Assembly (NCBI GenBank): GCA_041662745.1
Contig: JBAZRV010000005.1
Span: 74,316 to 106,315 of the forward strand
Direction of reading: 5' to 3'
DNA from: Patescibacteria group bacterium
GTDB lineage: Bacteria > Patescibacteriota > Patescibacteriia > 2-01-FULL-39-33
Length of the DNA: 32,000 nt
In this document: positions 2-18,096 of the stretch, one piece after another
Layout of the letters: every line of letters starts with the position of its first letter
Numbering within the stretch: position 1 is the first letter of the stretch
Made by a program: the position numbers and the translations under genes
The notes under the pieces: generated by a model
Seen by the model: only the letters and a program-made list of their open reading frames with translations
Databases searched by the model: none
What the model was told of the DNA's origin: nothing

Positions 2-445
2 ACTTATGTTACCGGCGATGTCTCCATCCGAGGCAATAATAACTTAATCATTAACGGCGTCTTGGCCGCCGATGGCGACATTGAGCTGGGCGCCAACACC
101 CTACTATGCTGTTGGGGGCTTAACTGCGGCCGCAGCCACATTACCATTAATCGCGTCGGCTCCACCACCCCGGCCGGAATATTAAGCAAACAGGATGTCA
201 GTTTTGAACTTTGTTTGGACAGTTTCTCCGGCACCGGCCTGGTTTATGCCAATGACAAAATAAACATCTTAAGCCTGCCTAACAGCATTGGTTTGACCGG
301 CGGTTTAATCTCGCGCAAAATCACTCTGACCAGCATCTGGCAACCCATGATCATTACTTATGACAATAGCGTTGTCAATTATACTTTGGGCGACCCGCAA
401 TTCTCGCCGATTGTAACCGTTGAGCACTGGGAGGAAGAATACTGA
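2..445 (+). CDS. C-terminal 147 codons of a larger ORF entering from upstream; hypothetical repeat-rich (beta-helix-like) protein, possibly pilus-associated
   Basis: The frame with codons at 2,5,8... is open from the window edge to TGA 443-445. Track entry 62..445 is only the part after an internal TTG. Repetitive G/N-x-hydrophobic pattern (GDVSIRGNNNLIINGVLAADGDIELG). No family recognised; its position directly upstream of pilMNO is the only functional hint. Confidence 0.55.
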   Translation, partial: TYVTGDVSIRGNNNLIINGVLAADGDIELGANTLLCCWGLNCGRSHITINRVGSTTPAGILSKQDVSFELCLDSFSGTGLVYANDKINILSLPNSIGLTGGLISRKITLTSIWQPMIITYDNSVVNYTLGDPQFSPIVTVEHWEEEY

Positions 446-2744: not shown

Positions 2745-2745
2745 T

Positions 2746-3240: not shown

Positions 3241-3282
3241 AAATCAAACAGATTATCAGCCGGGGGACATATTAATCGCACA

Positions 3283-3309: not shown

Positions 3310-3349
3310 ATTATCTTATTTATATTCTATTTTTCTAAACTATTCTAAG

Positions 3350-4558
3350 CTATTTCAGAGGCGACATGGCGCGGAGCTTCGCGATAATCGGCGGCAGTTC
3401 CTTAAGCAAGGCATCAACATCGGCTTTCTTAGAATAACGGCCTAAAGTAACGCGTAGCGACCCGTGAGCGACTTCCGGCGGCAAGCCAATGGCCAGAAGC
3501 ACATGGCTGGGTTCCAGTGATCCGGACGAACAGGCCGAACCCGTAGAAACGCAAATACCCTTTTGCGACAGCATCAATAAAACGCTCTCCCCCTCCACCC
3601 CCTCAATCACAAAGCTGGCATTATTGGGCAAACGCCTAATTAGGTCTCCGGTAACTCGGCAGTTCTTGATCTTTTTCGGCAAATTCTTCAGCAAATAATC
3701 CCTTAACTTTTTTATTTCCTTAATTTCCTTAACTCTAATTTTCTTGTCAGCAATCAACTCTACGGCTTTGCCCAGGCCGACAATGCCCGGAACATTGTAA
3801 GTGCCGGAACGGACCTGCCCTTGCTGGCCGCCGCCGTAAAATAACGGTTTCAAAGGCGTGCCTTTTCTGACAAACAAAGCACCCACGCCCTTGGGTCCGT
3901 AAATCTTATGCGCCGATAGCGACAACAGATCAACTTGCAGCTTAGCCGTATCGCAAGCCAAATAAGCCGGAGCTTGCGTGGCGTCAGTATGGAAATAAAT
4001 CTTTTGCCGGCGATTCTTGTTCAACTCGCCGATTATCTTACCTATCTCCTCTATGGGCTGGATAGCGCCGATCTCATTGTTGGCCAGCATAATGGAAACA
4101 AAAATCGTGTTATCCTTAATGGCTTTCTTCAATGCCGACGGATCAACTATACCCTTTTCGCCGACCGACAAGAAAGTCACTGCCACGCCGGACTTTTCCA
4201 AATGTTTGGCCGGCTCCAAAATAGCGTCATGTTCAATGGCCGAGATGATTATATGGGGCTTTTGGCCTGACTTTTCAATAAACCCTTGCGATAAAACACC
4301 CTTAATCACGCCCAGGACAGCCAAATTATCGCTCTCGGTGGCGCCGGAAGTAAAATAAACCTCATCAGTCCGGCAATTCAAAAACTTAGCCACCGCGACC
4401 CTGGCTTGATCAACCGCTTTGGCGGCAGAAATACCGGCCTGGTGCAGAGAACTGGCATTGCCGAAATTATCCTTAAGGCACGGCTCCATGGTTTTCACCA
4501 CTCGCGGATCAACCGGCGCAGTCGCGGCATAATCAAGATAAATTAATTTTTTAGGCAT
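3350..4558 (-). CDS. iscS: cysteine desulfurase (IscS/NifS class, PLP-dependent)
   Basis: 402 aa. PLP-lysine motif SAHKIYGPKG and catalytic-Cys loop STGSACSSG. Last gene of the iscR-iscU-nfu-iscS cluster. Confidence 0.92.
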   Translation of the reverse strand: MPKKLIYLDYAATAPVDPRVVKTMEPCLKDNFGNASSLHQAGISAAKAVDQARVAVAKFLNCRTDEVYFTSGATESDNLAVLGVIKGVLSQGFIEKSGQKPHIIISAIEHDAILEPAKHLEKSGVAVTFLSVGEKGIVDPSALKKAIKDNTIFVSIMLANNEIGAIQPIEEIGKIIGELNKNRRQKIYFHTDATQAPAYLACDTAKLQVDLLSLSAHKIYGPKGVGALFVRKGTPLKPLFYGGGQQGQVRSGTYNVPGIVGLGKAVELIADKKIRVKEIKEIKKLRDYLLKNLPKKIKNCRVTGDLIRRLPNNASFVIEGVEGESVLLMLSQKGICVSTGSACSSGSLEPSHVLLAIGLPPEVAHGSLRVTLGRYSKKADVDALLKELPPIIAKLRAMSPLK

Positions 4559-4605
4559 ATGATTGCAGTTTATGGCGCCTAGCCAATGATTGACGATTAA
4601 ATAAA

Positions 4606-4833
4606 TTAAACGTTTTCAATTTCCTTGACTTCGGGGACGCGTTCCATCACTACTTTGCCGATGCCTTCTTTTAGGGTGATGGCTGACATGGGGCAGCCAT
4701 GGCAAGCGCCTTGCAGGCGCACCGTTAACTTTCCCGACTTTTCATCAAAAGAAATGAATTCCACATCGCCACTGTCCATTTGCAGATGCGGTCTGAGTTC
4801 GTCCAGCACCGCTTTGATTTTTTGCTCTAACAT
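4606..4833 (-). CDS. NifU C-terminal-domain (Nfu-type) Fe-S cluster carrier
   Basis: 75 aa with the CHGCPMS (CxxC) motif and Nfu-like flanks (LRPHLQMDSGDVEFISF...). Confidence 0.85.
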   Translation of the reverse strand: MLEQKIKAVLDELRPHLQMDSGDVEFISFDEKSGKLTVRLQGACHGCPMSAITLKEGIGKVVMERVPEVKEIENV

Positions 4834-4847
4834 ATTTTGCTTTGTTA

Positions 4848-5240
4848 TTAATCTTTGGTTTGCTTTTTTCCTTCATACTCCTTGACTGCGGCGGCCAAAG
4901 CGTCGTGCGCCAGAATGGAACAATGCAATTTGGCTTCCGGCAATCCGTCCAATTCATTGGCAATATCCAGCTTGCCGACTTTCAGGGCTTCGGCAATGGT
5001 CTTGCCCTTAACCATTTCAGTCAACATGGACGAGGTGGCGATTGCGGCGCCGCAACCCAAGGTTTCAAATTTGATATCCTTAATGACATCCTCGCCTTGC
5101 TTATCGGCTTCCACTTTGATGTAAACCTTCATTACATCGCCGCAGACCGGATTGCCGACCTGCCCGACGCCGCTGGCGTTTTCAATGACGCCTTGATTGC
5201 GGGGGTGGGAAAAATGATCCATGACTTTTTCTGTATACAT
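4848..5240 (-). CDS. iscU: Fe-S cluster scaffold IscU/NifU N-terminal type
   Basis: 130 aa. Three conserved Cys contexts (NPVCGD, LGCGAAIATSS, KLHCSILA) and an HPRN motif. Confidence 0.92.
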   Translation of the reverse strand: MYTEKVMDHFSHPRNQGVIENASGVGQVGNPVCGDVMKVYIKVEADKQGEDVIKDIKFETLGCGAAIATSSMLTEMVKGKTIAEALKVGKLDIANELDGLPEAKLHCSILAHDALAAAVKEYEGKKQTKD

Positions 5241-5246
5241 ATTTAA

Positions 5247-5633
5247 TTATATTAAATTGCTTAGCTTATATTTTTTTAGCGTCTTAATCACATCGCCTTG
5301 CACTTGGAGCCAGACGCGGCGAGTCAGGCAATTTTTGGTTGAACAATTGCTAGACATGCATTGATTGACCGCCACTGAACCTTCCAACGCCTCCACGATC
5401 TCCAATAAGTTAATCCGGCCGGCGGAACGCGACAAAGCATAACCGCCTTCGGCGCCCTTGATACTTTTGACCAATTTGGCTTGCTTCAGCTTGGCAAACA
5501 GCTGTTCCAAATAAGACAATGACAAACCGGTAACTCGGGCGATTTCCGCCAAAGAAATCGGACGTTGAGCCTGATTTTCAGCCAAAATTACCAAAGCCTT
5601 AAGCCCATATTCGGTTTTAGTGGTAAACAGCAT
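5247..5633 (-). CDS. Rrf2-family transcriptional regulator (IscR-like)
   Basis: 128 aa. Rrf2 N-terminal wHTH (TKTEYGLKALVILA, SLAEIARVTGLSLSYLEQLFAKL). C-terminal Cys cluster CMSSNCSTKNC. First gene of the isc operon. Confidence 0.88.
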   Translation of the reverse strand: MLFTTKTEYGLKALVILAENQAQRPISLAEIARVTGLSLSYLEQLFAKLKQAKLVKSIKGAEGGYALSRSAGRINLLEIVEALEGSVAVNQCMSSNCSTKNCLTRRVWLQVQGDVIKTLKKYKLSNLI

Positions 5634-5647
5634 AATCGTTTAATTCC

Positions 5648-5698
5648 TACTAAATTACTTGGTATTAGTATTATAGCAACATAAAAACCGGCTGTCAA
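5648..5698 (-). promoter_or_regulatory. isc operon promoter with candidate Rrf2 operator
   Basis: On the minus strand: TTGACA (5698-5693), 17 nt, TGcTATAAT (-10 at 5675-5670). An inverted repeat TACTAA-11 nt-TTAGTA (5648-5670) abuts the -10 and covers the predicted transcription start. Confidence 0.65.
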
Positions 5699-5708
5699 GA
5701 GCCGGTTT
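5685..5708 (-). terminator. rho-independent terminator downstream of the C39-like peptidase gene
   Basis: AAACCGGCT-cttgac-AGCCGGTTT followed by TTTTTAT on the minus strand. The loop carries the -35 hexamer of the isc promoter. Confidence 0.8.
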
Positions 5709-5716
5709 ATAATAAG

Positions 5717-6580
5717 CTATCTGCTGACAACAATCATCACTTTCCGCCCCTGGATCATTTCGGCGTCAGTCATGCCATCGGCGGCCAAAAGCGGATTCCA
5801 ATCATGCACGGCGTTCAACAATGTGGCATAGCCATAGCGATAACCATTGCCCTTTCTGGTGCCGGGATCATTGGTCACAAACTCGCTGCCGGTCCAACCC
5901 TTAATTACCAACATATGATAAATCGGGCCCGGCGCTTTAAAATTGGGATTACCCAGCAAACGGCCGGCGGCCGGAATCAGAACCAAACGGCCCTTAAAAA
6001 TTTCCGTTTTTATCCGTTCCGTTGTCACTTCAGAAACTATTTCGGCTTTTAAACCGAAATATAACTGCAGTACGGTAACGGTTTCCTCGGCAGTCAGATC
6101 AACCTGGTAACCCTTGCCCGATTCCCATTTGACCAGCTTCTGAATTTCTTCTTCCATAATGCTTTCATCCAAAGGCTGAGTCTTATAAAACCTGTCGGCC
6201 ATAATCATGGACGCCTCCTCGCAGGCCTCTTCATGCAAGGCGTCCCAGTTGGCAAAAGGAGCTTGCTGGGCAAAACTGACATTCAATTGATAACTCTTGG
6301 GCATTGACTGGGCCGGAACGGCAACCGTTCCAGTTTGAGTCGGCTTGGTTGCGATCGGCCGAGTGACGGACTGAGCAGCGGGTTGAGAATTTTGGGTCGC
6401 TGGAGCGGTAAGATTTGAACTGTCCGAAACAGCTGTTGCCGGCGTTGCCGTTGAAAGAGCCGTGATCGGCGTTGCCTGCCTGTCACAACCGGCCAAACCA
6501 AAAATCATCAGGCTGATGATGCCGAAAACAAAAATATAAAAATTGAAAATATTTTTCTTCATAAGTTTAACATTGTTCAC
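5717..6580 (-). CDS. secreted lipoprotein with C39-like (papain-fold, BtrH/C39_2-type) peptidase domain
   Basis: 287 aa. Lipobox LAGC. Low-complexity Thr/Ala/Pro linker. Domain beginning YQLNVSFAQQAPFANWDALHEEACEEASMIM, which I recognise as the C39-like family pattern (recalled, not searched). Confidence 0.65.
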   Translation of the reverse strand: MNNVKLMKKNIFNFYIFVFGIISLMIFGLAGCDRQATPITALSTATPATAVSDSSNLTAPATQNSQPAAQSVTRPIATKPTQTGTVAVPAQSMPKSYQLNVSFAQQAPFANWDALHEEACEEASMIMADRFYKTQPLDESIMEEEIQKLVKWESGKGYQVDLTAEETVTVLQLYFGLKAEIVSEVTTERIKTEIFKGRLVLIPAAGRLLGNPNFKAPGPIYHMLVIKGWTGSEFVTNDPGTRKGNGYRYGYATLLNAVHDWNPLLAADGMTDAEMIQGRKVMIVVSR

Positions 6581-7244
6581 TATGACTTTCTTGTGAGGTA
6601 ACTATATCAGTCGCCGTACTGCCGGACACTTGTACCGTGCCCAAGTAAAGAGTTTCAGTGCAACATTGCCCATCCATAAAACGGAAATCATACTTGCTGC
6701 TGGCGGTTTCCGTCAGCATAATGCCGTTAAGCTGCTTGATCTTATTATAAACCTCCAAATCGGTTTTCAGCGAATATTTTTGCCGCAAAAATTCAGCCAA
6801 CCCCTTATTATCAGCAATCATGCTCTGGATCGCCACTTCCGGTACGGTTATGGCCGAGCCGTAACAGATGCCCGGTTTATATTTATCAACCAAATGCATT
6901 TTGGCAATCAGTTGCGGGGTGATTACAAATTTGCTCTCAACCGGAACGGAGGCCGAACCGGAACTGCCGGCCAATGCCTGAGCCAAACTCTGATCGGGAT
7001 AATAGCGCTTAACCTCGGCCGGCGCCGGCGCGCTGGAATCGGAGGCGGGAACTGTCGCGAGCGACTGGTTAATTGCCGGCGATCCGACTGCCGGCGCGGT
7101 TACTGCCGGAACAGAAGCGGTTGCGGCGGATTGCCGTTCAACGCCGGCAACGGTCAAATCTGTCGGTTTGAATTTTTGATAAACGCCAAAGCCGATCATT
7201 AGAACACACAAAAAAATTATGCTTAAAGTTATAACGTTTTTCAT
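6567..7244 (-). CDS. hypothetical secreted/membrane-anchored protein
   Basis: 225 aa. N-terminal TM/signal (ITLSIIFLCVLMIGFGVY), an Ala/Ser/Pro linker and a Cys-containing C-terminal domain. Overlaps the downstream peptidase gene by 14 nt. Own promoter at 7263-7291. Confidence 0.6.
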   Translation of the reverse strand: MKNVITLSIIFLCVLMIGFGVYQKFKPTDLTVAGVERQSAATASVPAVTAPAVGSPAINQSLATVPASDSSAPAPAEVKRYYPDQSLAQALAGSSGSASVPVESKFVITPQLIAKMHLVDKYKPGICYGSAITVPEVAIQSMIADNKGLAEFLRQKYSLKTDLEVYNKIKQLNGIMLTETASSKYDFRFMDGQCCTETLYLGTVQVSGSTATDIVTSQESHSEQC

Positions 7245-7262
7245 AGTAGTGTTACTGCTTAT

Positions 7263-7291
7263 ATTATAACAAAAAACCTATAACTTGGTAA
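7263..7291 (-). promoter_or_regulatory. sigma70-type promoter for the 6567..7244 gene
   Basis: Minus strand: TTACCA (7291-7286), 17 nt, TGtTATAAT (-10 at 7268-7263), then ATAAGCA. Confidence 0.6.
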
Positions 7292-7311
7292 TAGCTATTA
7301 TTCATACATCA

Positions 7312-7345
7312 AAACCCCGAGGCAGCAAGAGGCGTCGCGGGGTTT
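7312..7345 (-). terminator. putative terminator after uvrA
   Basis: Minus strand: AAACCCCG-18 nt loop-CGGGGTTT followed by TTTTG. GC-rich 8-bp stem, but the loop is large. Confidence 0.5.
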
Positions 7346-7365
7346 CTAATTACCCAAATTATATT

Positions 7366-9927
7366 TCATTTCAAATATTTTCTTAAATAATCACCGGTCA
7401 AGCAATCTTTCGCGCCGGTAAGCTGTTCGGGCGTACCCTTGGCTACGACTTTACCGCCATTATCCCCGCCTTCCGGTCCCAGATCAATCACCCAGTCCGC
7501 TTCTTTGATGATATGCATGTTGTGTTCAATCAAAACGACACTATTACCCTTATCAATTAATTTATTTAAAGCTTTAAGCAATAATTCAATATCATGGTAA
7601 TGCAAACCGACCGAGGGCTCGTCCAATAAGTATAAAGTTTTAGCGCCCAAGGTGTGCGTCAATTCGCGAGCCAACTTAATTCTTTGCGCTTCACCGCCGG
7701 ACAGGGTGGTGGCTGACTGGCCTAATTGCAGATAACCCAATCCGACTTCTTGCAAAACCTTAAGTTTGTCGGTAATCAGATATTGGCCGTCAAAATAATC
7801 AATTGCTTCGTCAATCGTCAATTGTAGAACTTCGGCGATGTTTTTGTTCTTATATTTGACCTGCAATGTCTCGCGGTTGAATCTTCTGCTACGGCAAACC
7901 TCGCATTCCACCAGCACGGCCGGCAAGAAATGCATTTCAATCAGATTGAATCCGGCGCCGTCGCAAGACTCGCAACGTCCGCCCGGACGATTGAAAGAAA
8001 AGCGCGAAGCAGTGTAAGCGCGTTCGCGGCTGGCCGGCAGCTGGGCAAAAAATTCGCGAATCGGCGTAAAAATTCCGGTATAGGTGGCGGGGTTGCTTCG
8101 CGGCGTCCGGCCGATAGGCGACTGATTTACGATAATCACCTTGTTAATGTATTCGCTGCCGATAATTTTGGCCACACCCCTGATTTCTTTCCGAAAACCG
8201 TGCTTGATTTTCAGTAGATTTTCATATAGGGCATCATAAAGCAGGGTGGACTTGCCGCTGCCGGACACGCCGGTAATGGCAATGAATTTCCGCAAGGGAA
8301 ACTCCACATCAATACTTTTCAAGTTATTGATCTTGGCGCCGATAACCTTGATGGCTTCAGCTTCCTTAAGGCGGCGGCTGCGATCCAGGTTGATTTCTTT
8401 CTCCCCGCGCAAATATTGCAATGTCAAAGAATCGGGGTAATCTTTGCCCTTAAGCAGTTTTTTGGTTTCCCCGACGGCCGTCACTTCCCCGCCGTGGCGT
8501 CCCGCCAAAGGTCCCAAATCTACCAGATAATCCGAGGCCATAATCGTCCGCTCATCATGTTCCACCACGATAACGGTATTATTCTGATCCCGCAATGATT
8601 TTAGGGTTTCAATCAGTTTCTCCGTATCCCTTTCATGCAGGCCGATAGTCGGCTCGTCAAGAACATACAGGGTATGGGACAAATGCGAACCGATCTGGGA
8701 AGCCAGGCGGATTCTCTGAGCCTCGCCGCCTGATAGCGTCTCAGCCTCGCGATCCAGCGTCAAATAATTCAAACCGACCTTAAGCAAGAAATCCAAACGG
8801 GCGCTGATTTCATAAACTACGGTTTCGCCGATAGTCTTCTGACGTTCAGTCATTTTGTTGTAATATTCGGAAAAAAACTTCTGGGCTTTATCCAGAGACA
8901 ACGCCGAGGTCTCGGCGATATTTTTGCCGTTGACCCGCACCGACAAGGCATTTTCATTCAAGCGCAAGCCATGGCAAGTCAGGCACTCCTCCACGATGCG
9001 TTCGTATTTGTTGCCGTCATCATCTTCGTCGGTTTTTTCCCTTTCCACCCATTTTTCTTTCCGGCCCAAACCGTGGCATTCGGGGCAGGCGCCATGCGGA
9101 CTATTGAATGAGAACAGGCGCGGCTCCACTTCAGGGAAGGCAAAACCGTCATTGGGGCACGTCCAATTGGAAGACAAGAGGATCTCCGCCGGTTCTTTAT
9201 CTTTCTGATTAAAAATCACGCGCACCAAACCCTTGGCATGATCCAAGGCGCTTTCCACGGCTTCAGTCAAACGCGTTTCATCTGCTAATCTGACTTTATC
9301 AATAACAATATCAATGGAATGTTTTTTGTTCTTGCTCAGTTCAATACGTTCGCGTAAAGAATTAATTTTGCCATCCACGCGCGCCTCGCCAAAACCCAGG
9401 GCCAAAAAATCATACAGCATCTGATAATATTCCCCTTTCCTATCCACCACCACCGGCGATAAAATCATAATATTATCCGCGCCCGACTCTTCGGCTTTGT
9501 TTTTGATGATTTCTATCATCTCATCCAAAGACATCTTAGCGATCTTAGTGCCGCAAACCGGGCAAAATACTTCGCCCAAGCGGGCATACAGGACCCGCAG
9601 GTAATCGTAAATCTCGGTCAAGGTGCCCACGGTGGAACGGGGGTTATGCGACAGGGCTTTCTGGTCAATACTGATAGCCGGCGCCAAGCCGACAATTTCG
9701 TCCACATCAGCCGGCTTCATTTGGCCCAAAAACTGCCGGGCATAAGGCGACAGCGATTCAATATAACGCCTTTGGCCTTCGGCAAAAATCGTATCAAAAG
9801 CCAGCGACGATTTGCCGCTGCCGGACACGCCGGTCATGACCGTCAACTTGTTATGCGGTATTTCCAACGAAATATTCTTTAAATTGTGCACCCGCGCGTT
9901 GCGGATAATTATCTTATCTTCAGTCAT
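7366..9927 (-). CDS. uvrA: excinuclease ABC subunit A (UvrA), short form lacking most of the insertion domain
   Basis: 853 aa. Two Walker A motifs ([18 protein letters not shown]), two ABC signatures (LSGGEAQRI x2) and C-terminal zinc finger CESCDGAGF...CEVCRSRRF. Strong end-to-end UvrA similarity as recalled from E. coli UvrA. Confidence 0.95.
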
Positions 9928-9949
9928 TTTTTTAAATTATTTTTTTACG

Positions 9950-10765
9950 CTACGTCAACGGGCTTTTGATATTCCTGATGCTCGGATTAGTAACATGAGT
10001 ATAAATTTGCGTGGTGCGGATATTCTGATGCCCCAAAAGTTCTTGCACATAACGAACATCAGTGCTGTTTTCTAACAAGTGGGTGGCGAAACTGTGGCGC
10101 AAACTGTGAAAAGTTGCTTCCTTCTTGATGCTTGACTTTTCAAGCACTTTGGCAAAAATCGCCTGTAAAGTTCTTTCCGTCAATTTTCCGCCACGTTCAC
10201 TCTCAAACAGATAGTCATTGCCCGAGCGATCACTGATAAGCGCGGCTAATTTACTTTTAATTTTTTCCGGAACAATCGTCAAGCGATCCTTTCGTCCCTT
10301 GCCCTGATCCACCTTAAGCGTCAACTCATTAAGAAAAACGTCTTTGATTCTTAAATTAACTGCCTCACTGACTCTAAGTCCGGCGCCATAAGACAAAGCC
10401 AAAATTAGCTTATGTTTCTCATTATCGGTGTTGCTTATCATCAGATTTATTTCCTCCCGGCTCAAAACCACCGGCAACCGCTTATTTTTTTTGGCTAATT
10501 TAAAATCAATATGTTGAGGCTTTTTTAGAATTTCGCGATAAAAAAACTTAATAGCGTTAAGGCACAAGTTGATCGTCTGAGGGGAATAGCCTTTTTCCTG
10601 CTTGATTAAAATAAACTCTTTAATTTTAGCGGAATCCGCCGCCATGGGGTTGTCATTTACAAAACATAGAAAGTCATTCAGATAATGAATATAACTATTG
10701 ATGGTCTTTCGGCTGTAGTTCCTGATTTTTAGCTCAATTATTGTTTTATCCGAATAACTTTGCAT
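9950..10765 (-). CDS. tyrosine recombinase, XerC/XerD family
   Basis: Start moved to ATG 10765 ([25 protein letters not shown]...). The upstream part of the track ORF is promoter/dif-like DNA. Catalytic residues are in the expected context: [34 protein letters not shown]. Confidence 0.88.
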
Positions 10766-10853
10766 AAATAGGGTAAAAAGGCTATAATTTATATGTAAAT
10801 TGATTATATCAACTATTCGTAAAATAATCAATATCCACACATTATACGAAAAC

Positions 10854-10882
10854 AATTCGCATAAGCGCTAGTTATGTGAAAT
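10854..10882. other. dif-like Xer recombination site candidate
   Basis: AATTCGCATAA-GCGCTAG-TTATGTGAAAT. The arms form a 9/11 inverted repeat. They match the E. coli dif arms GGTGCGCATAA and TTATGTTAAAT at 8/11 and 10/11. An extra arm copy, TTATACGAA, lies at 10842-10850. Confidence 0.55.
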
Positions 10883-10916
10883 CTTAAAAAAACAAACTTT
10901 TTATTAATTTAAACTT

Positions 10917-11225
10917 ATGAAACCGTGGTTTAAAAATGGCTGCTGGGGAGTAGCCGTCGCGACGATCTTAGCTTTAGCCTCATGGATAATTTGTATTATT
11001 GTTTATGCCCCTGATTTTAAATATTGGGCACAACCGCTTTGGTTATTCTTTTCATTTCCCGGGGCAATCATTATCGGAGTCGCTATGTTTCTGATGTTTG
11101 ACTACTATCCCCCGCGCATAATAGATTCATTTTCATTAATTTTAAGTACGGCTATTTCAATGGGAATTTATTTCTTATTTGGCCTCTTTGTTGGTTGGAT
11201 AATTAAAAAAATAAAAACATGGTAA
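10917..11225 (+). CDS. hypothetical integral membrane protein (3 predicted TM)
   Basis: 102-aa ORF, strongly hydrophobic (GVAVATILALASWIICIIVY, FPGAIIIGVAMFLMF, ISMGIYFLFGLFVGWII). No family recognised. Confidence 0.6.
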   Translation: MKPWFKNGCWGVAVATILALASWIICIIVYAPDFKYWAQPLWLFFSFPGAIIIGVAMFLMFDYYPPRIIDSFSLILSTAISMGIYFLFGLFVGWIIKKIKTW

Positions 11226-11308
11226 ATATCGGGATTATAATTTTAGTTATCTTGATAGTGGCCGGCGCAATAATTATGGGTATGAGGGAAGATAAGCATA
11301 ACCCATAA
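11219..11308 (+). CDS. possible 29-aa single-TM micro-protein
   Basis: The ATG overlaps the upstream stop (ATGgTAA). Sequence MVNIGIIILVILIVAGAIIMGMREDKHNP. Below the track size cutoff and supported only by coupling and hydrophobicity. Confidence 0.35.
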   Translation: MVNIGIIILVILIVAGAIIMGMREDKHNP

Positions 11309-11381
11309 AATACTAAAACACGTCGGCAACATTGGCAAAATCAACAAGATGGATTGACACAGATCATCGTTCCGCCTTGTC

Positions 11382-11410
11382 TTGACTTTTTTACTTCTCT
11401 TGGCTATAAT
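11382..11410 (+). promoter_or_regulatory. near-consensus sigma70 promoter inside the islet
   Basis: TTGACT (11382-11387), 17 nt, TATAAT (11405-11410). About 90 nt upstream of the SD-led ATG at 11499. Confidence 0.7.
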
Positions 11411-11498
11411 AAATAATCAGAGCAAAAAGAACCTTAAAATCCAAATAACCCATGGTAAGCGACTTTTTAGATCAATGCCACATGGAAGGAGGTTAATA

Positions 11499-11948
11499 AT
11501 GAACTCCAAGATTTTCAAAAAGCCGTATATCAAAGTGGAAATCACCGACACTGCCGTGTCGGGCAGTATGTTGTTTAGAAAACTGGGATCATGGTGCGAG
11601 GCGGAATCGTCGGTTCTAATGTGGGAAACAACCTACGAAGAAGCGCCCCTGCAACAATACTTTGCCACTACGGGAAGCAATGCGGGGAAAAAAACTGATA
11701 CTGCCGGCGGTAATTGGAGAATTGAATTCCAATTTGTCCGAGTCAACACTGGCGCTGAAAGAGGGTTTTTTGATGGCGCGATTATCATTGCCGGATTCAT
11801 CAAGAACACTTTGGAAGCGACCAACGATGAATCGCAACCGGCTTATTTATTATCAATTAATTCCCGATCATTGAAGGGCGAGCAAACATTCTTATCCGCC
11901 CCCGATCTCTGGAAGACGCTCACTAATTTGGGAGTGAAAAAAACTTAG
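11499..11948 (+). CDS. hypothetical protein (149 aa)
   Basis: Start placed at ATG 11499, preceded by GGAAGGAGG with a 6-nt spacer. The track start at 11382 would include the promoter. No recognisable domain. Confidence 0.65.
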   Translation: MNSKIFKKPYIKVEITDTAVSGSMLFRKLGSWCEAESSVLMWETTYEEAPLQQYFATTGSNAGKKTDTAGGNWRIEFQFVRVNTGAERGFFDGAIIIAGFIKNTLEATNDESQPAYLLSINSRSLKGEQTFLSAPDLWKTLTNLGVKKT

Positions 11949-12169
11949 GACATTTTTGAATCAAAAAGAGGAGAATTATACCCGAATCATTGCTAAAAAT
12001 ACGGGGGCAATAATATTCAATTCGTGGAATACCCTCATGATCATCCTAATTACTATGATAGCATCAGTGAAATCCATTGCCAGAATTGCGACCGACGTTT
12101 CGGCCGTTGGTCAGGCAAAGAATTAAAAGAAGGCGAATGCGAGAAACCTTATAGTAAGGAGAATTAAAC

Positions 12170-12460
12170 ATGACTAAAAAAAGGTTCATTGAACTGCATG
12201 GCCAATCTGCTTGGGACCTGCTAGTGGAGACGATTGAACCGCCGTTTGCCTGGATGAAAAAATTTATGCCCAGTGACGACAAAATGTCAGAACGCGGTCA
12301 CAAAACCGTTATGCGGCTTCTTGAACGGCTCGGCATAGTCGAAGCAACTGGCCTTAATGAGGCTGAACAAAAATCATGCGAAAAAGACTTAGAAATTGCC
12401 CGATTAGAAAAAGAAATAAAGAAATTGCGAAAACAACTTGAGCAAGGTGACCGACTATGA
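12170..12460 (+). CDS. hypothetical protein with C-terminal coiled coil (96 aa)
   Basis: ATG preceded by AAGGAG with an 8-nt spacer. C-terminus DLEIARLEKEIKKLRKQLEQ. No family recognised. Confidence 0.65.
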   Translation: MTKKRFIELHGQSAWDLLVETIEPPFAWMKKFMPSDDKMSERGHKTVMRLLERLGIVEATGLNEAEQKSCEKDLEIARLEKEIKKLRKQLEQGDRL

Positions 12461-12530
12461 CTAAAACTCAATTTGAAGTCCAAAGATGGCAATACTTTAA
12501 TCAATATAACAACCAAGGAGGACTCTAATT

Positions 12531-12722
12531 GTGAGTAAACCGAGATACACTCAATGGATAGATGGCGAGGGTTGGACAGGAATTACTCGGAAAATCCAGG
12601 GCCGGCCAGATGTTGCTATTGGTGTCATAACCGGCGCCTGCCATTCTATAAAAGACTTAATCAAAATGTTACAAGAAGCCTATAAAATGGGGTTAGCGGA
12701 TGGAAAAAAATTAAGACAATAA
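12531..12722 (+). CDS. hypothetical protein (63 aa)
   Basis: GTG start preceded by AAGGAGG with a 9-nt spacer. Followed by a strong terminator. Confidence 0.55.
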   Translation: MSKPRYTQWIDGEGWTGITRKIQGRPDVAIGVITGACHSIKDLIKMLQEAYKMGLADGKKLRQ

Positions 12723-12733
12723 GCACTTTAACC

Positions 12734-12760
12734 AAACACGGCACCCCTGCCGTGTTTTTT
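12734..12760 (+). terminator. rho-independent terminator ending the islet (shared with convergent cysS)
   Basis: AAACACGGCA-cccc-TGCCGTGTTT followed by TTTTTT. Confidence 0.85.
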
Positions 12761-12762
12761 GC

Positions 12763-14175
12763 TTAGATTTTTTTTAATTTATAATCATCCTTACTGTCTT
12801 CCATTTGCCAACCGGCTTGCAAGAGTTCATCACGCAAACGATCCGACTCGGCCCAATTCTTGGTTTGTCGAGCCTGCCAACGCGCTTCGGCTAAAGTTTT
12901 TATTTCAGCGGGAATTTCTTCCGCTCTAAGTTGCGATAAATTCAAGCCCAAAACTTGATCAAAATCAATTATGGTCGCATATTTTTCCGCATCAGGCAAA
13001 TCAGCCTTGAGTATTTCCCAAACCAATGCTAAGGCTTGGGGAATATTAAAATCATCTTCCAGGGCGGCGATGAACTTATTTTTAAATAATTCCTCCGTTC
13101 GCCCGCCATCCGGCTGGTTCGGTCGGAATGACAATAATTGCAAGCGTAAATTATTTAATGCGGATTGGGCGGCATCAAGCGCCTCCCAAGTAAAATTTTG
13201 CTTACTGCGATAATGCGCGCCCAAGAAAAAATAACGCAAGACCAGCGGATCATACCCTTTGGCCTTGATATCGGTTACCGAATAAGCCGTACCGTCGGAT
13301 TTTGACATCTTGCCGCCGTCAACATTAAGATGTTCATTATGCAACCAATAATCCACGAACTTTTGGCCGGAAAAGGCCTCGCTCTGAGCAATCTCGTTGG
13401 TATGATGCACGGGCACGTGCTCAATACCGCCCATATGCAAATCAATCGTTGGACCGAAAATCTTATAGTTCATAGCCGAACATTCCAAATGCCAGCCGGG
13501 GAAACCCTCCCCTTTAATTGTTTTACCCTGAACACGAAATTTGTACGGCCAAGTTTGTAAGGCATTTTCATGCGCGCCCGCCTTAAAAAACCATACGGCA
13601 AAGTCAGCCGAATTCCTTTTTCCCGGATCGCCCACTTCGCCCTTGCCGGCCTCAGCCTGATTTTCTTCCAATTTCTGGCCGGACAACCTGGTGTAGTCCC
13701 GGGCCTTGGCAATATCAAAATAAATCGCCAAATCGGTGACATAAGCATAATCCTTATCCAGAAAAACCTGCACCATTTTTTGCATTTGCTTGATATACTC
13801 CGTGGCCCGCGGTTTATAGTCGGGGGGCAAACAATTCAAATCAGCCACATCAGCTTCAAATTGCGCGATGTATTTATCAGCTATCTGCTTCGGCGTTAGG
13901 CCTTCGCGTCTGGCCGCCTTAATCATCTTGTCTTCGCCCTCATCCTCATCGCTGGTCAAATGGCCGACATCGGTATAATTCCGGGCAAACTTCACTTTGT
14001 AACCAAGATAGGCAAGCGACCGGCGAATCAAGTCGGCCAGCACCATGGCGCGCATATTGCCGAGATGCTGAATCCAATAAACAGTCGGCCCGCATTGGTA
14101 GAAAGTGACTTCTTTCTTTTTAAGCGGCTTAAAATCCTCTTGTTTTTTACTTAAGGTGTTGAAAATCTTTAACAT
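12763..14175 (-). CDS. cysS: cysteine--tRNA ligase
   Basis: HIGH-type motif (HLGN), KMSKS motif (GGKMSKSDG) and a typical CysRS N-terminus MLKIFNTLSKKQEDFKP when started at ATG 14175. Alternative upstream starts are ATG 14238 and TTG 14244 (the track start). Confidence 0.92.
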   Translation of the reverse strand: MLKIFNTLSKKQEDFKPLKKKEVTFYQCGPTVYWIQHLGNMRAMVLADLIRRSLAYLGYKVKFARNYTDVGHLTSDEDEGEDKMIKAARREGLTPKQIADKYIAQFEADVADLNCLPPDYKPRATEYIKQMQKMVQVFLDKDYAYVTDLAIYFDIAKARDYTRLSGQKLEENQAEAGKGEVGDPGKRNSADFAVWFFKAGAHENALQTWPYKFRVQGKTIKGEGFPGWHLECSAMNYKIFGPTIDLHMGGIEHVPVHHTNEIAQSEAFSGQKFVDYWLHNEHLNVDGGKMSKSDGTAYSVTDIKAKGYDPLVLRYFFLGAHYRSKQNFTWEALDAAQSALNNLRLQLLSFRPNQPDGGRTEELFKNKFIAALEDDFNIPQALALVWEILKADLPDAEKYATIIDFDQVLGLNLSQLRAEEIPAEIKTLAEARWQARQTKNWAESDRLRDELLQAGWQMEDSKDDYKLKKI

Positions 14176-14382
14176 AGATTTCTTTGCCGCTTTTTCTAGA
14201 AAAATCGGCTGAAAAAGTCGCGACCGGTCATAAATCATGGCCAAATTTTACACTTCACTCACTAAAATTTTCTGACGCTACGCTTGCGAAAATTTTTAGC
14301 GTTCGCTTTCGTATAAAATTAGCACAAGATTTATTTATAGTCGCATTTTAAATGCTAATAATAAATACAATAATTAATAAAA

Positions 14383-14835
14383 CTATTCAATTCTTACTTC
14401 ATCACCTGCCCTAATCCCGTGGCTGGCGACGAAACCGGCGTTGGCCTCTAATACCATATTTACCGGGCCGGGCGAAGCATAAAGCTCAGTTGGTCGCTCC
14501 CCTGCCGGCGGCAGATTCTCACTGGCGCCGACGACCTGATTATCTTTTAACCAAATGATATCCAAAGGAAAATTCATATCTTTCATCCAAAAACTGCGAG
14601 CGGACGGAGCGTTATAGACAAACAACATGCCACAATCGGCGCACAAGGACCGGCGATCGGATAAACCCTTGATTTTATCCGCTTCGGTCGTTACCAATTC
14701 CACTTTGATTTTTTTCTCGCCGAAATAAACATGTTTATCAGCTTTATCGGCCGTCTTAATGGCAGTACAGCCGGTTAGCAACAAACCGGAAAACAAGGCG
14801 AACGACAAAATTAAGCTTTTTTTGATTTGACCCAT
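14383..14835 (-). CDS. DUF192-family lipoprotein
   Basis: Start moved to ATG 14835 (MGQIKKSLILSFALFSGLLLTGC, lipobox LTGC). DUF192-like core MLFVY...FWMKDMNFPLDIIWL. Overlaps the upstream gene by 25 nt. Confidence 0.75.
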   Translation of the reverse strand: MGQIKKSLILSFALFSGLLLTGCTAIKTADKADKHVYFGEKKIKVELVTTEADKIKGLSDRRSLCADCGMLFVYNAPSARSFWMKDMNFPLDIIWLKDNQVVGASENLPPAGERPTELYASPGPVNMVLEANAGFVASHGIRAGDEVRIE

Positions 14836-15863
14836 AAGGCGACGGAAATTATTGCCATAACCAAAACCAAACAAATAATCAATATCATTTTACCAGAACT
14901 GGTTGAAATAATTCCCAAGGAGCCAAAGGCCAGGGCGATCAGCCACAAGAGCCAAACCGCCTGGGTGTGCGATAAGCCCAAGCCGAGCAAGCGGTAATGC
15001 AAGTGATTGCGATCGCCGGCGAACGGCGATTTGCCGGAAATTAAGCGACGTATAATCACCAGCAGAACATCCAGGGCCGGCAAACCCATCACCAGTAGCG
15101 TAGTAATGATTTTTGAGCCGGAAACAATGGAGAGCACCCCCAACAAAAATCCGATGAATACGGAACCGCCCTCGCCCAAAAAAATTGAGGCCGGGCGCCA
15201 ATTGTAAATCAAAAAACCGAGCGCTGCCCCCAAAAGCAACAAGGCCCAAATGCCTGTCGCCGACAACGGCGCATCCCAACGCAAAGAAACCAAAAAAATA
15301 AACAACGCGGCAATAGTGGCGATGCCGGCCACCAAACCGTCCAAACCGTCCAAAAACTTAGTGGTATAGGCCATGCCCAAGAGCCAAAAAAACACGATGG
15401 CTATGCCCAAATACTTGCCAATAAACAAAACGGCTCCGGATTGGCTTAAGGGATTGGTGATAAAAGCTATATGCAGCCCCGACAATAAAACAACGATAAC
15501 GGCGAAGACAGGGAAAAATATTTGCTGTTGCGGTTTAAGGCTGTATTTATCGTCAATCGTGCCGCCGATCATCAATATCAAACAAGCAAGAAAAATGCCC
15601 CAGAGCAAGCAATCGTTAATCAAAGAAAAATCCGCCAAATTAAAAAATCTAAAAATAAAAACACCGGCAAAAACCGATAAAAATATCGCCCACCCGCCCA
15701 TGAAAGGCACCGGATTCTGATGGATCTTGCGTTCGGCCGCCTGCGGTTTATCCATAATATCAAAACGCCGGGCCACCAATTTGACTAACGGGGTCAAACC
15801 GACGGCCAACAAAAAAGACAGCAAAATAGCGCCAAAATAAATGATGGGATCATTGTCATTCAT
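14811..15863 (-). CDS. glycosyltransferase family 4, WecA/TagO-like polyprenyl-phosphate HexNAc-1-phosphate transferase
   Basis: Polytopic membrane protein with motifs TIDDKYSL, FLDGLDGLVAG, DRNHLHYRLL and IFLGEGGSVFIGF. ATG 15863 is preferred (TATAAT lies 6 nt upstream). The track start is TTG 15878. Confidence 0.85.
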   Translation of the reverse strand: MNDNDPIIYFGAILLSFLLAVGLTPLVKLVARRFDIMDKPQAAERKIHQNPVPFMGGWAIFLSVFAGVFIFRFFNLADFSLINDCLLWGIFLACLILMIGGTIDDKYSLKPQQQIFFPVFAVIVVLLSGLHIAFITNPLSQSGAVLFIGKYLGIAIVFFWLLGMAYTTKFLDGLDGLVAGIATIAALFIFLVSLRWDAPLSATGIWALLLLGAALGFLIYNWRPASIFLGEGGSVFIGFLLGVLSIVSGSKIITTLLVMGLPALDVLLVIIRRLISGKSPFAGDRNHLHYRLLGLGLSHTQAVWLLWLIALAFGSLGIISTSSGKMILIICLVLVMAIISVALWVKSKKA

Positions 15864-15900
15864 GCCATAATTATACAAAAATCTTGGCTAAAATTCAAGA

Positions 15901-15929
15901 AAAACAAAAGGACCGGCTGAACCGGTCCC
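15901..15929 (-). terminator. rho-independent terminator after the small zinc-ribbon gene
   Basis: Minus strand: GGGACCGG-ttcag-CCGGTCC followed by TTTTGTTTT. Confidence 0.8.
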
Positions 15930-15956
15930 GTTAAAGTGCTATTGTTGTAAATCGTT

Positions 15957-16169
15957 TTACTGTTCCGTTTCATCGGACGGGCAAGGCGGTGTTTCCACCG
16001 GCGGATCACCCAGTTTCAAGCCGCAGGACGGGCAACGCGATAAATAGCTATAAAATTCTGCATGGCATTGCGCGCATTTAACCTTGACGCCGACAAAAGA
16101 GATAAAGACGAAAAGCGCAAAAAAAATGCACAAGACTTCCATAACCGGCGTACAAATTGCCGGCCACAT
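15957..16169 (-). CDS. small membrane-anchored zinc-ribbon protein (70 aa)
   Basis: ATG 16169 preceded by AAGAGGAG with an 8-nt spacer. TM (VLCIFFALFVFISFVGV) followed by CAQC...17 aa...CPSC. The longer 101-aa track version has no ribosome-binding site. Confidence 0.6.
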   Translation of the reverse strand: MWPAICTPVMEVLCIFFALFVFISFVGVKVKCAQCHAEFYSYLSRCPSCGLKLGDPPVETPPCPSDETEQ

Positions 16170-16170
16170 G

Positions 16171-16305
16171 TCAATTGCTCCTCTTGCGGTTGGCGCGCCG
16201 CTCCGCTCTGCGCTCCTCCCGCTTTGAACCGGTACGAGGCAAAAAACCGGCGCCGCTGCCATAATAAGCGGAAAAGAACTTAAGCCACAATCTGCGCAGA
16301 CTCAT
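16171..16305 (-). CDS. possible 44-aa arginine-rich peptide, translationally coupled to the zinc-ribbon gene
   Basis: ATG 16305 preceded by AAGGAG with a 7-nt spacer. MSLRRLWLKFFSAYYGSGAGFLPRTGSKREERRAERRANRKRSN. Its TGA is 1 nt before the next ATG (TGAcATG). Below the track cutoff. Confidence 0.4.
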   Translation of the reverse strand: MSLRRLWLKFFSAYYGSGAGFLPRTGSKREERRAERRANRKRSN

Positions 16306-16394
16306 GAATTTTCTCCTTTTTAGTTATCATAGCCATTTTAGGTCAGGAATTGCCATTCAAGTTATCCTATCAGCAACAACGTTTTTTGTCAAAC

Positions 16395-16418
16395 AAAAAC
16401 TGTCGAAAATTTCGACAG
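16395..16418 (-). terminator. rho-independent terminator after ftsEX
   Basis: Minus strand: CTGTCGAAA-t-TTTCGACAG hairpin followed by TTTTTGTTTG. Confidence 0.75.
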
Positions 16419-16439
16419 TAATAAAGTGAGATTTCTGCT

Positions 16440-16465
16440 AATTTTAGACGTTAATTTTAGACGTT
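16440..16465. repeat. perfect 13-bp tandem duplication spanning the ftsX stop codon
   Basis: AATTTTAGACGTT occurs twice (16440-16452 and 16453-16465). The second copy contains the last two codons and the TAA of ftsX on the minus strand. Confidence 0.9.
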
Positions 16466-17374
16466 TAAATATTTGCCAATGGCCACCGCCGAAGAAACAA
16501 TGTTGACGGCGGTAATGGCTAACAATTCCGTACCGAAGATATAAACAAAATTAGCATTAAAATAACCGGTCAAATCAAAGGTGGCGCCGGCAAAAAAACC
16601 GGAAACATACGGTTGCAACACCGATAACAAAGGATAGAAAAAAACTATGGTAATAAATACCGCGACGATTCCGGCAATAACGCTTTCCAAAATAAAAGGC
16701 GAACGGATAAACCAATTGGAAGCCCCGACCAACTTCATGATGCCGATTTCATTTTGGTGAGTGAAAATAGCCACGCGAACCGTATTAAAAATTATCAAGA
16801 TGGAAATAAGAGCGAAGATGCCGATAACGAAATAAGCGGCGCGGCGCACCGTATCGGCAATGCCGTTAATCCGCGAAATCACCAATTGATTATCATCATA
16901 ATTCTTTTCCTCAATCAACTCGGCAAAAGATGGATCATCGATGGCTTTTAGAATCTCCGGGTAATCCTTGAGATCCTTGGCTTTGATTACCAGGGTGGCG
17001 CTCATAGGGTTGGCGGATAACTCTTTAAGCGTCTCCTGAATCTTAACGTCGCCGGCATGCTTCTCCTTAAACGCTTCCAGATTGTCTTCAGATGAACGAT
17101 AAGTGATATTTTTGACTTGAGACAATCCTTCCAGATGGGATTTGACTTCGGCGACTTTGCTTTCCCTGACTTCCGGCTTGAAATAAACTGAGACATCAAT
17201 GCGGTCTTTAACCGCCGCAATGGCCGAGTCGGAAATAACATTGACGACCAGAAGCAGATTAACGGAAATCAAAGTTAAAAAAATCACAAAAACAGTGGCC
17301 AGAGACAGCCAAATATTGCGCCAAAAAGACTGCAGGGCGAAAAAAATTGAACGATTTAAAGTCAAAAGAAACAT
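16457..17374 (-). CDS. ftsX: cell division ABC transporter permease FtsX
   Basis: 305 aa. N-terminal TM, a large extracytoplasmic loop and three C-terminal TMs. Contains MKLVGASNWFIRSPFILE. Starts 3 nt after the ftsE stop. Confidence 0.88.
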   Translation of the reverse strand: MFLLTLNRSIFFALQSFWRNIWLSLATVFVIFLTLISVNLLLVVNVISDSAIAAVKDRIDVSVYFKPEVRESKVAEVKSHLEGLSQVKNITYRSSEDNLEAFKEKHAGDVKIQETLKELSANPMSATLVIKAKDLKDYPEILKAIDDPSFAELIEEKNYDDNQLVISRINGIADTVRRAAYFVIGIFALISILIIFNTVRVAIFTHQNEIGIMKLVGASNWFIRSPFILESVIAGIVAVFITIVFFYPLLSVLQPYVSGFFAGATFDLTGYFNANFVYIFGTELLAITAVNIVSSAVAIGKYLNV

Positions 17375-17377
17375 AAA

Positions 17378-18058
17378 TTAGATTACATATTTCCCTACTT
17401 TTTGATCTCCGACCACTAAGCCTTCATCCAAAGTAATAACGCGACGCTTGAGGGAATTAACAATTTCTTTATTATGAGTCACCATCACGACAGTGGTGCC
17501 AAACTCGTTAATTTTTAATAATAAATCAATAATATCCTTGGTGTTTAGGGCGTCCAGATTGCCGGTCGGCTCATCGGCCAAAAGCACCTTGGGACGATGA
17601 ATCAGGGCACGGGCGATGGCCACGCGCTGTTTCTCTCCGCCGGACAACTCATGCGGATAACGCGCCAGCTTATCCTGCAGATCCACAATAGACAGAACTT
17701 GGGGTACCACCGCCTGAATACGGCTTTTAGTGGCGCCGGCAACCTGCAAAGCGAAAGCCACATTCTCAAAGACCGTTTTCTTGGGCAAAAGCTTGAAATC
17801 CTGAAACACTACGCCGATTTGCCGGCGCAATGACGGTATGCTGCGCTTCTTGATATTAGTGATATCCCAACCGCCGATTATCACCTGACCGCTATCGGGA
17901 GGCAGCTCGGCAATAAGCAGGCGAACAATAGTTGTCTTGCCTGAACCGGATTGGCCGACAATGGAGACAAACTCTCCCGGCTCAATATGAATATTAGCGC
18001 TTTTAAGCGCTTCAGTGGTGGGCGGAAATTTTTTTGAGACGTCAACAAGATGGATCAT
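17378..18058 (-). CDS. ftsE: cell division ATP-binding protein FtsE
   Basis: 226 aa. Walker A GQSGSGKTT, signature LSGGEKQRVAIARAL, Walker B VLLADEPTGNLD. Paired with ftsX. Confidence 0.9.
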   Translation of the reverse strand: MIHLVDVSKKFPPTTEALKSANIHIEPGEFVSIVGQSGSGKTTIVRLLIAELPPDSGQVIIGGWDITNIKKRSIPSLRRQIGVVFQDFKLLPKKTVFENVAFALQVAGATKSRIQAVVPQVLSIVDLQDKLARYPHELSGGEKQRVAIARALIHRPKVLLADEPTGNLDALNTKDIIDLLLKINEFGTTVVMVTHNKEIVNSLKRRVITLDEGLVVGDQKVGKYVI

Positions 18059-18096
18059 GGCTGATTAATTTCAATTATCAATAAAATACTTTGCAT

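Follow-up and report, generated by a model that had tools for sequence, protein, structure and literature searches.

The current model of integron origin holds that a Xer-like ancestor gained the I2 helix and thereby came to recombine single-stranded hairpins, and canonical integrons are held to depend on this helix when they recombine attC (PMC7790495). In the account of Escudero et al., integrons originated when a Xer-like ancestor was hijacked by single-stranded elements, a scenario for which intermediates are lacking (PMC7790495). Surveys with IntegronFinder, which accept an integron integrase only if it has the I2 domain, report almost nothing in Bacteroidetes and leave Patescibacteria unmentioned (PMC4889954; 10.1101/2022.02.28.482270; 10.1101/2022.02.06.479319). 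Archaeal dif has a 6-bp spacer and does not adjoin xerA (PMC2958812). In the literature that we searched, whose coverage is incomplete, we found no description of an integron-like or dif system in Patescibacteria (CPR). Here, we describe a locus of this group at which the core site is probably the attI/dif-type double-stranded site of an IntI/XerA-like recombinase that captures cassettes in an integron-like manner.

Structurally, the core site occupies positions 10854–10882 of the window (by which we mean the whole 32,000-nt stretch of DNA analyzed) and lies 89 nt upstream of the ATG of the gene that it adjoins, the sole tyrosine recombinase gene of the window. Read on the + strand, it consists of a proximal arm, AATTCGCATAA (10854–10864), a 7-nt central region, GCGCTAG (10865–10871), and a distal arm, TTATGTGAAAT (10872–10882). 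The proximal arm, which is constant, corresponds to an L box, and the distal arm, which can be exchanged, to an R box. The crossover maps to the triplet GTT at 10871–10873, which reads AAC on the recombinase-sense strand. The first-pass annotation had proposed a dif-like inverted repeat here, and its measurements were all recovered when the letters were re-read: the arms are complementary at 9/11 positions, match the arms of E. coli dif at 8/11 and 10/11, and enclose a centre of 7 nt; 151 bp separate the recombinase ATG (10765, minus strand) from the ORF start at 10917; a third arm copy, TTATACGAA, lies at 10842–10850; and the 9-mer TTATRYGAA occurs three times within 10842–10880.

Palindromy by itself is common in the window and not distinctive, with 29 inverted repeats of layout 11-(6..8)-11 and at least 9/11 complementarity against ~14 in shuffles. 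The 9-mer TTATRYGAA has four copies in the 32 kb, where shuffles average 1.7 and four or more copies were reached in 7 of 100. Likeness to dif, unlike palindromy, is an unusual feature: the core site stands alone in the whole window in reaching at least 16/22 matches to the dif arms, and its score of 18/22 was equalled or bettered in just 2 of 150 shuffles. Scored with a weight matrix from orthologous sites, it reaches 33.1 bits, and the runner-up in the window 10.1 bits. No second copy of the site bounding an element was found in 9800–13000 or elsewhere in the window, and no tRNA gene was found at or near the site.

The adjoining gene (9950–10765, minus strand) encodes a 271-aa tyrosine recombinase of the IntI/XerA-like ‘Cand’ type, without the integron-specific I2 domain. 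It has the SAM-like and the catalytic domain of tyrosine recombinases (Pfam matches to SAM_4 and to Phage_integrase, the latter at 2.6e-41), and belongs to the ‘Cand’ subgroup of Xer-related recombinases of Smyshlyaev et al., which according to the literature may substitute for Xer (PMC8138268). Among the NCBIfam models, XerA_Arch (NF040815) is passed at the borderline (227.5 bits, cut-off 220; orthologues score 214–228), and the scores are 210.9 bits, in two stretches, for the integron integrase (TIGR02249, cut-off 265), 194.7 bits for XerC (cut-off 335), and 186.5 bits for XerD (cut-off 330). An arrangement like that of XerS/difSL had been suggested for this locus; the site does lie beside the gene, but the recombinase is not XerS (NF003462, 87.7 bits, cut-off 267), and XerH is only distantly related (PDB match at 1e-15). 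The best PDB relatives are VchIntIA/IntI4 (2a3v, 5e-45) and then XerA (4a8e, 2e-43). The alignment to 2a3v falls into two pieces with ~43 residues skipped (IntI4 175–240 versus query 171–193), and the skipped residues are those of the integron-specific I2 domain. A canonical IntI recovered in the same scan, from Calditrichia (L073), does have the I2 domain and reaches 488 bits against the integron model. An apparent I2-like insertion in one long tblastn match (L049) proved to be a frameshift and not an insertion. An enzyme without the I2 helix counts against an integron-like reading.

The catalytic residues R131, K156, H220, R223, H246, and Y255 are invariant in 25 homologues, and the C-terminal ..SPL tail is common to the recombinase and IntI. 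Within CPR, the recombinase family gives 7,771 matches at E ≤ 1e-20, with protein identities of 59–88% among the matches listed (120 of the 7,771). A family so wide and so strongly conserved shows a pattern more like that of housekeeping Xer than that of integron integrases. The closest viral relative, from a search of 2.9 million viral contigs, is 34% identical.

Further copies of the arm lie on the gene side of the core. The third arm, TTATACGAA (10842–10850), is inverted with respect to the proximal arm, from whose 11 nt it is separated by 3 nt (5 nt separate the two 9-mers), and is kept in a subset of lineages only, comprising the window, L082, L083, L086, and five other loci. The first-pass annotation was right about this half-site, and did not list a fourth arm, ATTCGTAAAAT (10815–10825), which is a direct repeat of the proximal arm within a promoter spacer; both look accessory. 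The promoter-like site in question, which would serve the recombinase gene, lies at 10803–10831 on the minus strand (TTGATT, 17 nt, TATAAT, with TG upstream) and is a consensus match only, at 10/12 positions, and an equivalent −35/−10 pair is visible in most orthologous loci. In ~20 of these loci, a copy of the locus’s own proximal arm lies in the spacer of the −35 and −10 boxes and changes in step with the arm, as where TTATCCGAAT occurs twice in L090 and TTATACAA twice in L007. We presume the third and fourth arms to be accessory binding sites of the recombinase, and the arm copies at the recombinase promoter suggest autoregulation by the enzyme. A weak outward promoter-like site on the + strand (10800–10828; TTGATT, 17 nt, AATAAT), again a consensus match only (9/12), could read into inserted genes, and some cassette units carry promoter-like sites of their own.

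Recombination at the core is recorded in natural alleles. A metagenome scan with the 29-nt promoter pattern returned two loci, one of which (L085, a JGI contig) is an occupied allele, and a look-up of ORF102, which starts at 10917, led to L100, a 48-kb ENA contig from an assembly separate from that of L085. Both contigs are identical to the window on both sides, and hence of the same strain, and each carries an insert of 1,175 bp. Positions 1–4792 of L100 align to 6092–10883 of the window, with the true left identity stopping at ..CTAGTT; positions 5955–12309 equal 10871–17225 of the window at 100% identity; and the two blocks enclose the 1,175 extra bases. An independent contig (L001) likewise shows the empty allele, and the window site is the unoccupied state relative to the sibling strain.

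On the recombinase-sense strand, with the junction marked by an arrow, the empty site reads TTTCACATAAC↓TAGCGC-TTATGCGAAT, the left junction of the insert TTTCACATAAC↓GTTACCG.., and the right junction ..TTTTGCAGAAC↓TAGCGC-TTATGCGAAT. The crossover therefore lies within AAC/GTT at 10871–10873, and the centre of the core site remains with the proximal arm after insertion. The centres of the two partners, CTAGCGC and CGTTACC, have just their first C in common, and one centre is intact at each junction; such intact, unlike centres would fit the exchange of one strand at AA↓C and subsequent replication, and not a classical double exchange. Single strand exchange is also the mode of integrons and of CTX phage. 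In a second species, contigs with an identical recombinase protein match up to AAC and are unrelated beyond it (L092 versus L090, L091, and L093), and it is in these two species only that allele polymorphism was seen. At a greater distance, L082 and L083, whose recombinases share 88% protein identity with that of the window, show homology to the window that runs from uvrA across the recombinase gene and stops at 10883–10892, the outer edge of the distal arm, and the content beyond differs. The proposal that the repeat is a genuine recombination site is thus upheld by a natural recombination event that maps to the dif/attI-type core.

Evolutionarily, the pairing of the site with an adjacent Xer-related recombinase, as first proposed from the window, is kept across CPR lineages. 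In a survey of 80 loci from genomes and additional ones from metagenomes, a site of the same 10-7-10 layout and the same orientation lies 90–170 nt upstream of the orthologous gene in ~25 CPR lineages, including Wolfebacteria, Paceibacterota, Peribacteria, Magasanikbacteria, Gracilibacteria, and Saccharibacteria. On the recombinase-sense strand, 28 sites yield the consensus TTTCgnAtAA-CTcgTTn-tTATnCGAA, from a set that is partly circular because the matrix built from the first matches helped to collect it; in this set, the spacing is 7 nt in 28/28 sites, AACT and TAT are invariant, and the TAT..CGAA motif of the proximal arm is kept throughout. The proximal arm is the same in empty and occupied alleles and in close relatives. 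The distal arm varies between alleles and close relatives, reading TTTCACATAA, TTTCATATAA, TTTCGTTTAA, or TTTTGCAGAA on the gene-sense strand. The recombinase gene stays beside uvrA in relatives, and it is the opposite side that changes.

The insert itself was parsed into three units (L100 4781–4927, 4928–5476, and 5477–5955), the first without an ORF and the other two with ORFs of 112 and 100 aa, for which we found no family match in Pfam, NCBIfam, PADLOC, or PHROGs. The units encode small ORFs only and no recombinase of their own, as the definition of an IMEX has it. Their ends are long imperfect palindromes built like attC, in the order R'', L'', variable loop, L', R'. R'' measures ~11 nt, ends in AAC, and is followed after 0–2 nt by an L'' of 12–18 nt; L' is followed by 3–5 nt, usually ending in AAC, and then by an R' that starts with GTT. 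The R boxes of the hairpins match the distal arm. The L box, read on the bottom strand, holds the proximal-arm motif (A/T)TATrCGA at 9 nt from the R arm, so that the folded strand would mimic a two-arm core with a bulged centre, and it is the bottom strand that folds more stably in 6/7 hairpins. Units with attC-type hairpins occur in 11 loci, among them L100, L182, L007, L024, L094, and L054.

Hairpins were counted under one explicit layout, drawn up after the first cases had been seen, and it is the side and orientation controls that give this post-hoc count its weight. On the array side (83 kb), eight hairpins were found in the orientation of the array and none in the reverse orientation, and none were found in 241 kb of the gene side, both strands included, or in 415 kb of shuffled arrays. 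Furthermore, R'' complements the start of its own cassette better than it does the next R' in 10/11 cassettes, a result that stands although the search itself favored a match to the following R'. This fit is the signature of a circular intermediate recombining at G↓TT, and would have the cassettes move as circles. Reuse is documented for a single cassette, cassette B (that of the 100-aa ORF), the only one found in two arrays: it recurs in the array of L182 with 82% nucleotide and 78% protein identity, homology between L100 and L182 ends at the borders of the cassette, and its neighbors differ on both sides. Units without an ORF, structured and with compensatory changes in their stems, lie beside the site in three species. 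Across arrays, unit sizes range from 0.15 to 4 kb, with no replication or phage genes and with one hairpin at the 3' end, and several units are multi-gene without internal hairpins (L094).

In the window, the side facing away from the recombinase gene is a low-GC variable flank on the + strand (10883–12760; GC 0.40 versus 0.45–0.47 in the flanks, with the opposite sign of skew). It holds ORF102 (10917–11225), a 29-aa peptide ORF (11219–11308), ORF149 (11499–11948), ORF96 (12170–12460), and ORF63 (12531–12722), all on the + strand, and a terminator-like hairpin (12734–12757). The ORFs of the flank gave no family match in Pfam, NCBIfam, PADLOC, or PHROGs, and no attC-like hairpin site was recognized between 10883 and cysS; judged by its sequence, the platform in the window is empty or decayed. 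In L082, a gene for a 371-aa aminotransferase takes the place of the ORF102 segment, and a block corresponding to 11214–11972 is kept at 73%.

In other CPR lineages, the far side holds accessory genes on the opposite strand, and the gene side holds core genes. The far side of L086, for example, carries an EcoRI-type methylase, GmrSD, an AAA protein, and an S8 peptidase, and L094 has methylases and a HinfI-type endonuclease within one hairpin-ended unit. Contigs end at most 600 nt upstream of the gene in 20/32 CPR loci and at most 600 nt downstream in 1/32; the upstream breaks fit population heterogeneity or repeats at the site. Outside CPR, homologues in Flavobacterium and Spirochaetota are 39–43% identical and also lack I2. 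There, the site lies just downstream of the gene and is followed by co-oriented ORFs between which lie conserved ~130-bp repeats of the same hairpin architecture, and a cultured strain, Flavobacterium difficile KDG-16 (L054), has a clean three-cassette array.

Several other explanations bear on the same locus, and the most substantial is that a single-recombinase Xer system uses the core as its chromosomal dif, resolving dimers at the replication terminus, with the inserts as hitch-hikers (IMEX) or ordinary variability. Such was in part the first-pass reading, in which the recombination site of the adjacent Xer-related enzyme was correctly recognized, cassette insertion was unforeseen, and the terminus finds no support. 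Local GC skew does not change sign across the site (−0.095 over 1–9900 and −0.099 over 12763–32000), the core genes flanking the site lie on the same strand without an orientation switch, and L082 and L086 likewise show no inversion of skew or switch of gene direction across the site; it is the variable flank alone that differs in strand, skew sign, and GC content. The claim of a terminus is thus unsupported because neither skew nor core-gene direction inverts in the local sequence of three lineages, and the genes on the recombinase side are all directed away from the site. In CP011209, a closed Wolfebacteria genome of 984 kb, the site falls at about 119 kb in the numbering of the record. The chromosomal-dif explanation does draw on the 18/22 matches to the E. 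coli dif arms, on the passing of the XerA cut-off, and on the uniqueness of the site in 32 kb, and a near-ubiquitous, highly conserved CPR family whose ‘Cand’ subgroup may replace Xer (PMC8138268) is what it would predict. Hairpin-forming elements are, moreover, known to exploit Xer sites (CTX phage; PMC7790495). We nonetheless consider it unlikely, given that an exchangeable distal arm and accessory arms in a promoter are described for no dif, that archaeal XerA sites do not adjoin xerA (PMC2958812), and that the Flavobacterium and Spirochaetota homologues combine the same site with repeat-separated cassette arrays. A role in dimer resolution, alone or beside cassette capture, is plausible on its own terms, as the ubiquity of the family in CPR argues.

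Two further explanations fare worse against the natural insertion and the placement of the gene. A palindrome that acts purely as an operator for divergent promoters, with no recombination, would suit the 151-bp divergent intergenic location, the arm copies overlapping the promoter, and the commonness of short inverted repeats in the window, but it has to contend with an insertion whose crossover lies inside the site in two independent assemblies, with homology that breaks at the distal arm in two species, and with hairpin R boxes that match the distal arm, and we regard it as scarcely credible. Very improbable too, if slightly less so, is that the recombinase serves a prophage, ICE, or genomic island as its integrase, for which the repeat would be attL/attR or an attP remnant. 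Low GC over 10000–12750, the Pfam Phage_integrase match, and the accessory and defense genes that adjoin the gene in other lineages point that way. Phage or conjugation genes, however, were not found in the window, there is neither a second site copy bounding an element nor a tRNA at the site, and the gene keeps its place beside uvrA in relatives with the other side variable. The site pattern had a single viral match, a chance hit within an ORF that has no recombinase close to it, and an origin as a phage integrase is rejected because the best viral homologue among the 2.9 million viral contigs is only 34% identical.

Mechanistically, we posit for integron-like cassette capture that one recombinase monomer would bind the constant proximal arm and another the exchangeable distal arm, and that the neighboring enzyme would be the one to catalyze insertion, with strand exchange at AAC/GTT (10871–10873), at the margin of the distal arm. 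The second substrate would be a hairpin-forming site on a small circular gene cassette, whose L box carries the proximal-arm motif and which presumably recombines as folded single-stranded DNA, with one strand exchanged. Cassettes would then stack beside the recombinase gene, directed away from it, and the third and fourth arms would act as accessory sites, probably enabling the recombinase to repress its own promoter.

A broader proposition, which we advance tentatively and at somewhat less than even confidence, is that the locus represents a natural I2-less integron, a XerA–IntI intermediate with a dif-shaped capture site, which is widespread in CPR and mirrored in Flavobacterium and Spirochaetota. 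In CPR, such an integron may double as a dimer-resolution system. If true, it would link Xer/dif systems exploited by single-stranded DNA to modern integrons, either as the intermediate that has been missing or as a solution of independent origin. An I2-less enzyme running cassette arrays would make the question of the origin of I2 directly testable, and in a cultured host too, given the array of Flavobacterium difficile KDG-16. Small CPR genomes are thought to be poor in mobile elements. A capture platform of this kind would give the group a major means of gaining genes that has been overlooked, with arrays in other lineages carrying restriction-modification and other defense genes. It would also explain why CPR metagenome-assembled genomes recurrently break immediately upstream of the gene. 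Integron finders that require I2 would not call this recombinase an integron integrase.

Among described systems, integrons share the most with this locus. Both have a primary site beside the recombinase gene, which is divergent from the inserted genes, the same conserved GTT/AAC crossover, and extra arm copies on the gene side, comparable to DR1 and DR2 of attI1. In both, cassettes end in paired R''/R' and L''/L' palindromes with an asymmetric unpaired spacer, R'' fits the cassette’s own start, and most cassette ORFs belong to no known family. The CPR enzyme differs, however, in lacking the ~40-residue I2 domain, and we do not file the system as an integron because this defining protein feature is missing. 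Its R box is 10–11 nt long, whereas that of integrons has 7, and its spacers of 0–2 nt and 3–5 nt compare with two of ~5 nt in integrons. Some CPR units are whole multi-gene operons, the CPR family appears near-universal whereas integrons are patchy, and the window itself holds no hairpin site.

With the XerS/difSL and XerH/difH systems, the locus shares a single recombinase beside an inverted-repeat site with dif-like arms (..CATAA / TTATG..), and departs from them in its 7-nt centre, the lack of skew inversion at the site, the exchangeable distal arm, the accessory arms, and the inserted cassettes. Archaeal XerA/dif is the closest named family to pass a cut-off and has the same 11-n-11 repeat with dif-like arms, although the CPR protein scores slightly better against IntI4 than against XerA structures. 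Like IMEX of the CTX-phage type, the CPR system appears to use a folded hairpin partner resembling a two-arm site whose centre is bulged; centres are likewise non-homologous, which implies single strand exchange, and insertions are stacked in tandem, but the CPR units are without replication or phage genes and the recombinase gene is always in cis. The pdif modules of Acinetobacter, finally, are similar in pairing small gene modules and Xer-type sites with a Xer-family enzyme; pdif sites, though, are complete double-stranded sites in alternating orientation on plasmids, whereas those of CPR are directly oriented hairpins beside one primary site.

Around the recombinase gene, assembly breaks in the CPR (Patescibacteria) loci are strongly one-sided: among the 32 such loci in our table (L002-L081), 20 have a contig end no more than 600 nt away on the upstream side of the gene, against one on the downstream side. 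In Bacteroidota-type loci, most breaks fall just downstream of the gene, which is the position of their site. Two contigs of the second species, which encode recombinase proteins identical to each other, place the break more finely, with L092 (MEGAHIT assembly, k=141) ending exactly 140 nt past the AAC crossover triplet, and L093 (Logan assembly, for which we take k to be 31) ending 29 nt past it; these are the end points to be expected if the assembly graph forks where the crossover lies.

Three different species also carry GC-rich structured units that lack an ORF, either adjacent to the site or within cassette arrays: at 4781-4927 of L100 (the sibling strain with inserted cassettes), at 1-141 of L092, and at about 165-320 and 2361-2405 of L182, an array with a cassette in common. 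Each starts with GTTnnnnAAAA, followed by TCGCTTCGC and TTTTnnnnAAC, with compensatory stem changes among the units. In other CPR lineages, the far-side DNA is rich in defence functions (L086, 2872-9704; L094, 2544-9723), including an EcoRI-type methylase, GmrSD/HNH, an AAA protein with an S8 peptidase, and a HinfI-type restriction-modification system, with every one of these genes on the strand opposite the recombinase. Farther along the window, tRNA-Gly(CCC) and tRNA-Thr(CGT) genes (18964-19123, plus strand) lie within a long run of minus-strand genes.

Beside the site, the predicted recombinase promoter shares a palindrome at window 10800-10831 (TTGATTATATCAA and, on the opposite strand, TTGATATAATCAA) with an overlapping promoter-like site that faces outward, so that a single protein bound there could affect transcription in both directions. 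A 29-aa hydrophobic peptide ORF, MVNIGIIILVILIVAGAIIMGMREDKHNP (11219-11308), overlaps the ORF102 stop codon; conservation extends to the relative L082, and in L100 this ORF was called as a gene. Two CPR recombinase genes (L049, 179-1076; L039, 3001-3785) are split across reading frames and thus may be pseudogenes; in L039 the sole site-like sequence, at 823, is 2.2 kb away from the gene. Separately, PDB chain 9i5v_14 (401 residues), whose deposited name is "ribosome-associated translation inhibitor RaiA", aligns with the recombinase across ~260 residues (62 bits), a similarity that suggests a recombinase-like protein or fusion within a ribosome structure. In L090, of the second species, a RaiA/S30AE gene is three genes away from the recombinase.

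Outside CPR, at the loci of homologous recombinases that also lack the I2 domain (L054, L036, L040, L066), the core site lies on the downstream side of the gene, 50-150 nt away. It is followed by co-oriented ORFs that each end in a conserved ~130 bp hairpin repeat, and the first R'' box is the exact complement of the bases adjoining the site. One such array, with three hairpin repeats (L054, 3943-6560), belongs to Flavobacterium difficile KDG-16, a cultured host in which the system is therefore testable.
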